From a virus, in IMG/VR virus record IMGVR_UViG_3300045450_000109, positions 1 through 64,000 of that record: 64,000 nt of DNA; one strand, written 5' to 3'. A program made the position numbers and the translations under genes. Each line of letters begins with the position of its first letter. The stretch's first letter is position 1. The notes beneath the pieces were generated by a model. It was not told the DNA's origin and did not search any database. It saw only the letters and a list, made by a program, of their open reading frames with translations. Shown one piece after another: positions 47,994 through 48,729 of this stretch.

Positions 47994-48163
47994 CGTTACG
48001 TAGTTTAGATTGACAGTAAAACACCCCCACCTTTTGCGTCCTGGGTTCGAATCCCAGCGCTCACTCAGGTGAGTCGTATCCAAGCGGCCGAAGGAACCAG
48101 GTGTAAAAGCCTGGCACGCAAGCCATCGGGGGGAATCGTGGTTCGAAGCCACCGTAACAACCA
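47994..48163 (+). ncRNA. composite tRNA-like unit 1: outer CCA-ending tRNA-like RNA with a permuted Tyr-like (GUA) class-II tRNA nested in its anticodon arm
   Basis: Outer acceptor CGTTACG pairs with CGTAACA and outer stem CCCCC with GGGGG; T loop TTCGAAG; 3' end ACCA. Inner module: T arm CTGGG-TTCGAAT-CCCAG, then CGCTCAC, linker TCAG, GTGAG(T)CG, D loop AAGCGGCCGAA and anticodon arm CCAGG-TGTAAAAG-CCTGG, joined to the outer RNA by helix TTGCGT/ACGCAA. Confidence 0.6.
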
Positions 48164-48167
48164 AGCA

Positions 48168-48246
48168 CGACCTGTAGTTCAGTTGGATTAGAATACTCCC
48201 AATGCTACGGGAGAGGTCGGAGGTTCAAGTCCTCCCAGGTCAGCCA
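48168..48246 (+). tRNA. tRNA with 8-nt anticodon loop (contains U-GCU-A; identity undetermined), CCA encoded
   Basis: CGACCTG-TA-GTTC-AGTTGGATTA-GAAT-A-CTCCC-AATGCTAC-GGGAG-AGGTC-GGAGG-TTCAAGT-CCTCC-CAGGTCA-G-CCA. There is a C1:A72 mismatch and a short variable loop. Confidence 0.6.
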
Positions 48247-48428
48247 AACCCCGCTAGGAGCAATTCATCGCTCAAATTTCACTATAACCTCCCAGGAACA
48301 CCATACGCTGATGGGGTTGAAAACGAGACAGGTAACCCCTGGTCTCTGATGGCTCGTGTTCACCCGAACGAGCGGAAGCGTGATGAAATAATCGGGTGTT
48401 GAATTCGGCTCGCAAGAGCACACCGAGT
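48247..48428 (+). ncRNA. structured spacer between tRNA-like genes (possible stable RNA)
   Basis: Hairpins GGGGTT/AACCCC (48313-39), GCTCGT-GTTCACCCGA-ACGAGC (48352-73), and GGTGT..GCTC-GCAA-GAGC-ACACC (48395-424). Track ORFs here lack an SD. Confidence 0.3.
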
Positions 48429-48573
48429 AGACAAGTAGTTTAGGAGCAAAACGCGGTCACCGTTTAATGTTGCGGGTTCGAGTCCCGTCTGCGCCGCAAG
48501 GGGCAGTAGCTCAGTCGGTAGAGCATAAACCCATTAGACCGAATCGAAGATAAAAACACTTCCTTGTCAACCA
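48429..48573 (+). ncRNA. composite tRNA-like unit 2 (outer CCA-ending tRNA-like RNA + nested permuted tRNA lacking an anticodon loop)
   Basis: Outer pairs: AGACAAG/CTTGTCA and CGGTC/GACCG, ending ACCA. Inner order: GTTTA, ATGTT, GCGGG-TTCGAGT-CCCGT, CTGCGCC, linker GCAA, GGGGCAG, TA, GCTC-AGTCGGTA-GAGC, A, TAAAC. Confidence 0.6.
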
Positions 48574-48577
48574 AGTA

Positions 48578-48729
48578 TGATACGTAGTTTAACGGGAAAA
48601 CAGGTTCACGCACTCTTGGGGTCGCCGGTTCAAATCCGGCAGGGGTCACATGACCCCTTAGCTCAGCTGGTTAGAGCACAAGACCAAACATTAGAATCAG
48701 TTGTGGTATCAACTCCACCGTATCGACCA
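48578..48729 (+). ncRNA. composite tRNA-like unit 3 (same architecture)
   Basis: Outer pairs: TGATACG/CGTATCG and GGTTC/GAATC, ending ACCA. Inner order: TCTTG, GGGTC, GCCGG-TTCAAAT-CCGGC, AGGGGTC, linker ACAT, GACCCCT, TA, GCTC-AGCTGGTTA-GAGC, A, CAAGA. All inner stems are perfect. Confidence 0.65.

Follow-up and report, generated by a model that had tools for sequence, protein, structure and literature searches.

The 64,000-nucleotide stretch of viral DNA analyzed herein (IMG/VR virus record IMGVR_UViG_3300045450_000109, positions 1 to 64,000; hereafter the window) was found to carry, between positions 47994 and 48729, three RNA units in which a permuted tRNA-like module of the YrlA type is nested within a second, CCA-ending tRNA-like frame. 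The units lie in a tRNA operon of a phage, their helices are maintained by compensatory changes, and none of them can decode. The original prediction, made from the sequence letters alone, had described this nested architecture, and both the architecture and every helix listed for it were present (Table 1).

Architecture and covariation of the nested units

As summarized in Table 1, the outer frame of each unit began with a 7-bp acceptor having an invariant G2:C71, followed by U8 and A9, a D-like stem of 4 bp that carried A14 and A21, position 26 and an "anticodon" stem of 5 bp; a variable region of 4 nt then led to a T-like hairpin of 4 bp, and A73 with an encoded CCA made ACCA the end of all three units. 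The inner modules retained all of the canonical tRNA tertiary nucleotides, namely U8, A14, G18G19, A21, G53-C61 and a T loop of the form UUCRANY, together with the elbow and Levitt-pair nucleotides. Pairing in unit 3 was complete for the inner acceptor (7/7) and the inner helix (5/5), and for the outer acceptor (7/7) and outer stem (5/5) when one G-U pair was counted in each, while the corresponding values for unit 2 were 6/7, 5/5, 6/7 and 5/5. In unit 1, the inner helix (6/6), outer acceptor (6/7) and outer stem (5/5) were likewise formed, and the inner acceptor required the bulging of T48074, exactly as had been claimed. Further predicted features were also borne out: the 1:72 pairs of the outer frames were weak or mismatched (C1xA72, A1xA72 and U1-G72 in units 1, 2 and 3, respectively), the inner modules of units 2 and 3 were devoid of an anticodon loop, and unit 1 showed a Tyr-like class-II character. 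Unit 1 kept an entire anticodon arm, with GUA inside an 8-nt loop, on a tRNA-Tyr-type body having a 3-bp D stem, and its inner module was attached to the frame via what would be the long variable arm.

An ortholog of unit 3 with 90% identity was found on the minus strand of a second phage (locus L136, 8138-8285). In all four sequences, the loop of the inner acceptor conformed to N-C-A-N (TCAG, GCAA, ACAT and GCAT), and the junctions opened with AC right after the outer stem and had CCAU(U/C) ahead of its 3' strand; the single-stranded motifs conserved in the units were GUAGUUUA..AAAAC, AC...CCAU, the N-C-A-N loops and ACCA.

The claim that the helices covary across the units was assessed with an alignment of units 1 to 3 and the ortholog, i.e., four sequences of which three are paralogs, fitted to the structural model. 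Standard pairs occupied 96.9% of the 160 pair cells and both-sided changes occurred in 22 of the 40 pairs, with none of 500 shuffles reaching any of the measures; when the 3' partners were slid by 1-3 columns as a control, pairing fell to 36-49%. Covariation was seen in seven of the eight helices, including the outer T-like hairpin between units 2 and 3, and only the outer D-like stem was left without such support because its GTTT/AAAC never varies. In the ortholog, the inner helix TCTTG/CAAGA was replaced by GTTTG/CAAAC, which corresponds to two compensatory pairs. A covariance model built from units 2 and 3 and the ortholog, and thus without unit 1, recovered unit 1 in full length with 60.3 bits. 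Unaided folding by RNAfold recovered the acceptor of the outer frame along with the T, acceptor and D arms of the inner module, and the complete nested fold of unit 3 lay 2.1 kcal/mol above the minimum free energy (MFE). The MFE z-scores of the units were modest (-1.6 to -2.0, compared with -2.6 for nearby true tRNAs) and are unconvincing alone; the case rests on covariation.

The unit sequence recurred in at least four independent assemblies (Logan, NCBI and JGI) with 0-5 single-nucleotide polymorphisms, by which the rearrangement of an assembly, named in the original prediction as a potential refutation, was excluded. The ortholog was seen in two further assemblies (records IMGVR_UViG_3300013307_000018, identical with Ga0157372_10000028, and ENA k141_247371, 263 kb). 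The observation was thus confirmed as real.

Table 1. Positions of the three nested units and of associated elements in the window
Feature	Position	Strand	Details
Unit 1	47994-48163	+	170 nt; helices verified
Unit 1, outer frame	47994-48000/48153-48159; 48003-48022; 48024-28/48128-32; 48138-48152; 48160-63	+	acceptor (C1xA72); D-like arm; stem; T-like arm; ACCA
Unit 1, inner tRNA-Tyr-like module	48034-39/48116-21; 48041-57; 48058-76	+	joining (variable-arm) helix; T arm; closed acceptor hairpin (loop TCAG, bulged T48074)
Unit 1, inner module, continued	48079-95; 48097-48114	+	3-bp D arm; anticodon arm with 8-nt loop UGUAAAAG
Unit 2	48429-48573	+	145 nt; helices verified
Unit 2, outer frame	48429-35/48563-69; 48438-52; 48454-58/48537-41; 48546-62; 48570-73	+	acceptor (A1xA72); D-like arm; stem; T-like arm; ACCA
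Unit 2, junctions	48459-61; 48531-36	+	ACC; CCATTA
Unit 2, inner YrlA-type module	48462-66/48526-30; 48472-88; 48489-48506; 48509-24	+	helix, followed by variable ATGTT; T arm; closed acceptor hairpin (loop GCAA, one G-G mismatch); D arm
Unit 3	48578-48729	+	152 nt; helices verified
Unit 3, outer frame	48578-84/48719-25; 48587-48601; 48603-07/48694-98; 48703-18; 48726-29	+	acceptor (U1-G72); D-like arm; stem; T-like arm; ACCA
Unit 3, junctions	48608-13; 48684-93	+	ACGCAC; CCAAACATTA
Unit 3, inner module	48614-18/48679-83; 48624-40; 48641-58; 48661-77	+	helix, followed by variable GGGTC; T arm; closed acceptor hairpin (loop ACAT); D arm
Odd tRNA, class I	48168-48246	+	begins 4 nt past unit 1; C1xA72 mismatch; encoded GCCA
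Promoter-like motif	46401-46434	+	AAAAAATACAC-N-TGTAGAGA; start of the tRNA/ncRNA (non-coding RNA) operon
Intrinsic-terminator-like hairpin and T run	49273-49301	+	3' of tRNA-Trp; consensus match only

Relation to tRNAs and to YrlA

No canonical tRNA was called in the native units by ARAGORN or by Rfam at its gathering threshold, and the outer frames with the insert removed were not accepted as tRNAs by ARAGORN. A mis-parsing of ordinary collinear tRNAs, which the original prediction had itself considered, was therefore rejected. The sub-threshold matches to RF00005 in the units (16.9-21.1 bits) merely joined the outer D arm with the inner T arm, and no transfer-messenger RNA, including the two-piece permuted type, was called in the window by either ARAGORN or Rfam. 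A tandem pair of tRNAs was likewise rejected, since the acceptor and anticodon strands showed no cis pairing within each half and instead paired across the halves: the first acceptor strand with the last, the strand past the first T arm with the strand ahead of the second D arm, and both "anticodon-stem" strands of one half with the two of the other. The topology of the units is that of a "swapped" tRNA dimer, and it therefore suggests that the units arose from a tandem tRNA pair. The unit covariance model also aligned end to end with many tRNA dimers of other viral contigs (36-59 bits), each of which was split by ARAGORN into two normal tRNAs.

As for the outer frame, a lone tRNA-like gene without an insert was found in a metagenome (L147; Ga0247608_10309059, 1211-1285, minus strand) and was reported as "tRNA-???" by ARAGORN. 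It had the D arm GTAGTTTAACGGCAAAAC and the variable AGTT in common with the outer frames together with an 8-nt loop of its own, ACCCCCAU, and thus looks, as far as its sequence indicates, like a stand-alone relative of the frame. The outer frames carry CAU at 34-36, A73 and G2:C71, which are identity elements of MetRS; however, a reading of the frame as tRNA-Met was not adopted, in view of C33, the pyrimidine at 37 and the CAU that abuts the stem in L147. The CAU motif more closely resembles what is left of a CCC(C)AU loop than a Met anticodon.

YrlA (Y RNA-like A) is an ncRNA of bacteria and phages that is associated with Ro60/Rsr. Its tRNA-like module is carried on a bulged stem and runs from a T arm through a closed acceptor-like hairpin to a D arm; more than 250 bacteria and 22 phages have been reported to encode YrlA RNAs close to Ro60 (PMC4201824). 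This defining order, with the tRNA elbow nucleotides and on a stem in place of the anticodon loop, was present in three of the three units, to which unit 1 added an anticodon arm. Unit 2 in particular agreed almost base for base with the YrlA consensus in the unusual variable UGUU as well as in its T arm, GCGGGUUCGAGUCCCG, and its D arm, GUAGCUCA..GGUAGAGC. A permissive scan with the Rfam YrlA model (RF02553) gave 45.6 bits (E 1.9e-8) for unit 3, where the whole model was covered over 48601-48703 with the outer stem included, and 37.8 bits for unit 2 over 48464-48529; the ortholog reached 39.7 bits. With the same model, six YrlA-like RNAs of IMG/VR that lie directly upstream of a Ro60 (TROVE) gene scored only 34.9-45.6 bits, and tandem tRNAs of T4 and of this phage scored 19.8-26.3 bits. 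The units score like genuine viral YrlAs.

When IMG/VR was scanned for modules with a pattern consisting of a T arm, 19-24 nt and then TAGCTCAG, many modules whose intervening strands make a hairpin were retrieved, and the TROVE gene adjoined the RNA in all ten loci where one was found. A phage YrlA-like RNA lying between a directly preceding tRNA and a TROVE gene (L036 3273-3410; IMGVR_UViG_3300012036_000267) ended in a 7-bp terminal stem, AAAACTG/CAGTTTT, followed by ACCA, and by these features is a Ro60-linked phage Y RNA with tRNA-style ends. Closed-acceptor YrlA-like modules were also observed at five IMG/VR loci (L052 8880-8995, L066, L100, L115 and L121) with no TROVE gene in the 4.7-14 kb available per locus; Ro60-less Y-like RNAs may thus be commoner in phages than assumed.

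The original prediction had known of no bacterial or phage case of a permuted tRNA module, nor of any nesting of one tRNA within another. The former part did not stand, as the permuted T arm-acceptor-D arm module is the already known YrlA architecture, in phages too, while the latter part still did: in the literature searched, no YrlA-type module was described as nested within another tRNA-like frame. What appears new is the module at the anticodon-loop position of such a frame, the placement in a tRNA operon with 4-nt spacing, and the lack of both a nearby Ro60 gene and a GNCGAA motif in the stem.

The phage and its operon

The source phage is a jumbo phage, as an exact-protein look-up placed the identical sequence on 278-kb contigs. 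Its AAA ATPase showed 39-42% identity to the counterparts of Ralstonia phages RP12/RP31 and of Klebsiella and Serratia jumbo phages, and no DNA-level relative was found among GenBank phages, the sole match being that of an odd tRNA between units 1 and 2 (Table 1) to a tRNA-Asp of an Aeromonas phage. Signature scans of IMG/VR, JGI metagenomes and GTDB (the one match in GTDB uninspected) located nested units in two phage species only: the IMG/VR pattern scan gave one contig bearing the ortholog, and the JGI scan gave the same two phages and the lone collinear relative of the outer frame. A search for related loci with a neighboring protein returned nothing, and homologs of this protein were confined to the two phages as well; no unit was found in syntenic position in RP12 and KpLz-2_45, the nearest relatives in GenBank, and a search of IMG/VR for tRNA-like genes with a CACCCCCAT loop yielded nothing relevant.

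Three collinear tRNAs were identified in the window by ARAGORN and by Rfam at the gathering threshold, i.e., tRNA-Asn (47303-47376), the odd tRNA and tRNA-Trp (49084-49159), and seven tRNAs (Asp, Gly, Tyr, Asn, Glu, His and Ile) precede the units in a 99% identical variant, L001. Where read, the 3' ends had an encoded CCA and the spacers were 4 nt long (AGTT, AGCA and AGTA), in agreement with the tRNA-like spacing predicted for the units. The promoter-like motif and the terminator-like hairpin flank this tRNA/ncRNA cluster. The motif is operon-specific, with three matches in 64 kb, all inside this operon, against 0 expected; one of its two extra copies (47251-47282 and 47944-47975) lies 19 nt upstream of unit 1, and it is kept at the operon start in L001 and the second phage. 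It presumably works as a promoter, and the hairpin likely ends the transcription unit that holds the three units.

Each extra copy, accompanied by a hairpin, follows one of two cassettes with an HNH (HNH_3/NUMOD4) endonuclease gene (window 46670-47251 and 47387-47944). The genes are missing from L001, which holds tRNAs Asp, Gly, Tyr and Glu, His, Ile in place of the cassettes; in the window, tRNA-Asp is reduced to its first 24 nt (46591-46614) and tRNA-Asn is without an encoded CCA. Between the motif and the first tRNA, there is a leader of ~155 nt (46435-46590; L001 8510-8665; L157 ~9040-9250), which is ~80% conserved in the second phage and is followed there by ~200 nt more of non-coding sequence with a T-arm-like hairpin, GGTGG-TTTGATT-CCACC. 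An open reading frame (ORF) overlapping the leader (46476-46673) is probably spurious.

The odd tRNA and a non-coding spacer of 182 nt (48247-48428), which lie inside the reported span between units 1 and 2, had been left out of the first account. Compared with the E. coli sequence, this tRNA looks like a tRNA-Asp. It has an 8-nt anticodon loop, AAUGCUAC, and was reported as "tRNA-???" by ARAGORN and with 47 bits and a loop insertion by the Rfam tRNA model. Its ortholog in the second phage (L136 8056-8133, minus strand) has a 7-nt loop, CUGCUAC, with the anticodon GCU on a class-I body, which SerRS should not recognize. The odd tRNA stands directly 3' of a unit in both phages and belongs with it to one conserved RNA cluster; it may be non-standard, or a tRNA that evades nucleases. 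The 3' end of the spacer, GAATTCGGCTC-GCAA-GAGCACACCGAGTA, is kept in the second phage with a GNRA-to-GNRA loop swap (GTAA), and the spacer gave no match in Rfam and an MFE z-score of just -0.33.

Several other features of the region were noted. An ORF of 107 aa with a good Shine-Dalgarno sequence (48747-49070) begins 18 nt past unit 3; it had no Pfam match and is not present at the locus of the second phage, and its motif VVLDGAHRLHKA recalls the DGxHR sites of the ParB/sulfiredoxin type. Pfam matches to Acb3, an inhibitor of the cyclic oligonucleotide-based antiphage signaling system (126 bits), and to Tad3, a Thoeris inhibitor (65 bits), were found at window 2927-3715 and 4507-5859, with an Rv2179c-like 3'-5' exoribonuclease nearby (8814-9494). 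The thymidylate synthase ORF covers just the first 139 of the 266 Pfam model positions and is followed by a GIY-YIG/NUMOD3/I-TevI-like endonuclease gene (the two at window 26450-27502 and 27595-28434). This arrangement recalls the intron-split td gene of T4. Rfam at the gathering threshold reported no group I intron. The Rfam family Ysr251, an antisense small RNA of Yersinia, matched the antisense strand of phoH (L157 3815-4008, minus strand; L001 898-1091) with 87.8 bits in the second phage, which hints at a phoH captured from, or a host related to, Yersinia-like Enterobacterales.

Readings of the units and comparison with known systems

We consider it rather probable that the units are Y-RNA-like mimics without a decoding role, matured by tRNA processing and serving as decoys or tethers that bind proteins. 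Each of them would be one non-coding RNA of ~145-170 nt, freed from a polycistronic tRNA transcript by the ordinary tRNA-processing machinery, with RNase P and the 3' enzymes acting at the outer acceptor and ACCA. The degenerate outer frame would then serve as a natural "tRNA scaffold", providing the RNase P 5' site and a tRNA-type 3' end and hence stability, and the bulged stem that replaces its anticodon loop would bear the complete YrlA-type module. Such an RNA would expose a single tRNA-shaped domain or a pair of them, with no usable anticodon loop, and the inner domain, as is thought for YrlA RNAs, would mimic tRNA and bind, tether or titrate a tRNA-recognizing protein, unit 1 being the tRNA-Tyr look-alike on offer. 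Candidate partners would be a host or distantly encoded Ro60/PNPase, a modification enzyme, a synthetase or a tRNA-targeting defense nuclease, the last because the operon contributes tRNAs for Asp, Tyr, Asn and His along with a loop-altered tRNA, and the window encodes Acb3 and Tad3. By analogy with the YrlA of Mycobacterium smegmatis, RNase P may furthermore nick the inner 7-bp hairpins and the CCA-adding enzyme may extend the new end, which would give a two-piece RNA with two CCA ends. A fuller version, which we regard as unlikely, would make of each unit a two-piece, domain-swapped double tRNA mimic: a Ro60-independent Y-RNA module would sit in a degenerate, L147-related frame, RNase P would cut at both acceptors, both 3' CCA ends would be completed, and the product would act during infection as a bivalent decoy or adaptor for tRNA-binding proteins, its possible targets being a tRNA-Tyr-specific or acceptor-stem-directed defense nuclease, PNPase or a synthetase.

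A number of observations weigh against the reading as Y-RNA-like mimics. The YrlA scores of the units are below the Rfam gathering threshold of 69 bits, which is nevertheless too strict for viral members because the six TROVE-adjacent viral RNAs do not reach it either. The covariation is limited to four sequences because the family is known from just two phage species. A true tRNA elbow may fail to form in the outer frame, since units 2 and 3 have non-canonical outer T loops and the outer D loop has lost its GG in unit 1 and the ortholog. The link to Ro60 is weak, because no TROVE gene was found in the ~80 kb made up of the window, L001, the loci of the relative (L136 and L144) and 6-10 kb flanks, yet one was immediately adjacent in every positive control; the search covered the flanks and used Pfam on all ORFs of at least 442 aa and 40 more of 107-387 aa, and a TROVE hidden Markov model on six-frame translations of the window, L001, L002, L136 and L144, by which the positive controls were detected. 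A YrlA is expected within ~4 kb of a TROVE gene on the same strand, and no such gene was found around the units in this ~80 kb. In YrlA, the Ro60-binding helix is formed by the 5' and 3' ends of the RNA and has GNCGAAN0-1G in its 5' strand (PMC4201824). A regular-expression search for this motif gave no match in any of the stem strands, and the single match, GCCGAAG at 48087, was located in the inner D loop of unit 1. Finally, the protein partner and any benefit to the phage are purely conjectural.

With regard to the other readings, the units could be bona fide Ro60-binding Y RNAs, in which the outer stem and internal loop would form a divergent Ro60 site, Ro60 would be supplied by the host or from elsewhere in the ~278-kb genome, and the RNA would tether Ro60 to PNPase or gate Ro60, as in the RYPER complex. 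The end-to-end coverage of unit 3 by the YrlA model, the parity of the scores with those of TROVE-adjacent viral YrlAs and the fact that many of the latter are likewise without a clean GNCGAA motif are consistent with such a function, as are the TROVE proteins with a tRNA-like partner that some jumbo phages carry (PMC7824862) and the phage Ro60/Y-RNA pair that binds host PNPase (PMC12135203). We nonetheless judge it improbable, given that ~80 kb around the units holds no TROVE gene as against ten of ten IMG/VR loci with the gene beside the RNA, that the 5'-strand motif is absent, and that the 5' strand of the outer stem in unit 1, CCCCC, is unlike known Ro sites. Moreover, none of the 60 named records among the 105 phages matched by a TROVE tblastn was a closest GenBank relative (RP12/RP31 and the Klebsiella and Serratia jumbo phages) as judged by the AAA ATPase comparison, and more distant Vibrio phages were among the matches listed. 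A role as Ro60-independent anti-defense decoys or sponges, soaking up tRNA-targeting nucleases, toxins or tRNA-modifying or charging enzymes with unit 1 as a mimic of tRNA-Tyr, is a possible though doubtful alternative; the suggestion of decoys or tRNA mimics in the original prediction remains viable and comes close to the explanation favored here. It accords with the tRNA-shaped domains lacking cleavable anticodon loops, with the GUA-bearing anticodon arm on the Tyr-type body of unit 1, and with the position of the units in a tRNA operon that includes Asp, Tyr, Asn and His tRNAs and an adjoining tRNA with a changed anticodon loop, since phage tRNA sets have been linked to the evasion of anticodon nucleases (PMC10264068, PMC11555353, PMC11464382). 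The Acb3 and Tad3 proteins encoded in the same window point in the same direction, although their genes are ~40 kb distant, and anticodon nucleases generally require the anticodon loop that units 2 and 3 do not have.

Far less credible is the proposal, put forward in the original prediction, of permuted or split pre-tRNAs, or of a tRNA with a tRNA-shaped intron, cut and ligated into functional collinear tRNAs. The 3' half does lie upstream of the 5' half, CAU occupies 34-36 of the outer frame in four of the four units together with A73 and G2:C71, distant relatives encode RtcB, RNA ligase and KptA, and ARAGORN accepted the re-joined inner modules of units 1 and 2 as tRNA, that of unit 1 with an abnormal anticodon loop. 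These re-joined modules are, however, tRNA-like only owing to their intact T, D and acceptor parts, and their anticodon loops amount to 9 nt in unit 2 and 16 nt in unit 3, with 8 nt in the arm of unit 1 itself, so that units 2 and 3 cannot regain a 7-nt loop. The frames without the insert go unrecognized as tRNAs, which speaks against the intron, and have C33 in place of U33; the junctions, read from sequence, are asymmetric internal loops (3/6, 5/6, 6/6 and 6/10 nt) unlike the 3-4-3 bulge-helix-bulge; the window ORFs that were scanned yielded no RNA ligase, no RtcB and no splicing endonuclease; and the same module works unspliced in YrlA. It is just as hard to believe that the units are non-functional recombination debris of tandem tRNA genes, promoted for example by the homing endonucleases of the operon. 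Although every unit runs colinear with two tandem tRNAs, full-length alignments of the unit model were obtained with many tRNA dimers and the operon has visibly been remodeled by the two HNH cassettes, debris is unlikely because the helices have been maintained by compensatory change in three diverged paralogs and the ortholog, and because the second phage retains one unit and the odd tRNA at a locus without a canonical tRNA; the conservation of the single-stranded motifs also argues against it.

Until now, the partnership with Ro60 has been what defines Y RNAs and their tRNA-like modules. If the RNAs of the preferred reading, i.e., the Y-RNA-like mimics, are expressed, the tRNA-like module would be able to function apart from Ro60, the engineered tRNA scaffold compared below would have a natural counterpart, and a class of non-decoding tRNA mimics would join the phage tRNA islands implicated in evading tRNA-targeting immunity. 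The unit genes are wholly missed by genome annotators, and covariance models mistake them for tandem tRNAs.

The permuted tRNA genes known from algae such as Cyanidioschyzon merolae and the split tRNAs known from archaea mature to complete tRNAs via a circular intermediate cut at a bulge-helix-bulge, for which no splicing endonuclease is known in bacteria. The phage units share with them the 3' half upstream of the 5' half and the short linker between the acceptor strands, but units 2 and 3 differ in that they cannot regain an anticodon loop (for a review of the algal and archaeal genes, see PMC3400036). The nearest contextual analogue is the pair rnaC and rnaD (species 1 and 2) of T4, which are stable RNAs of ~120-140 nt encoded directly after tRNA genes in a cluster with a homing endonuclease, rnaC having a T-arm-like element and rnaD ending in CACCA. 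Unlike the units, they contain no nested permuted module, and their candidacy as homologs was rejected, as neither their sequence nor their structure matched the unit model or YrlA.

The closest structural likeness is to YrlA, with which the units have in common the succession of an "anticodon-like" helix, a variable region, a canonical T arm, a closed acceptor-like hairpin, UA, a canonical D arm and the returning helix, as well as the bulged stem that carries the module without an anticodon loop. YrlA itself binds Ro60/Rsr and is modified by TruB and DusA. In contrast to YrlA, the ends of the Y-like stem are not the ends of the RNA but run on into the second tRNA-like frame, the units are placed in a tRNA operon rather than beside a TROVE gene, the stem has no GNCGAA and the scores are sub-threshold, and unit 1 retains an anticodon arm and is joined through its variable arm. 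The YrlA of M. smegmatis is the one YrlA with a 7-bp acceptor-like stem, and it undergoes cleavage by RNase P and CCA addition in vivo to give a two-piece tRNA-like RNA (PMC4201824). The phage units likewise have 7-bp inner stems, with N-C-A-N loops, whereas the M. smegmatis RNA is without an outer tRNA frame and is encoded next to rsr. As for the outer frame, its topology is the same as that of the engineered "tRNA scaffold" of Ponchon and Dardel, in which a structured RNA put in place of the tRNA anticodon loop reportedly gives a stable chimera via cellular tRNA processing; the engineered scaffold is synthetic, whereas the phage frame is natural and degenerate, with a presumed role as scaffold for a YrlA-type module.

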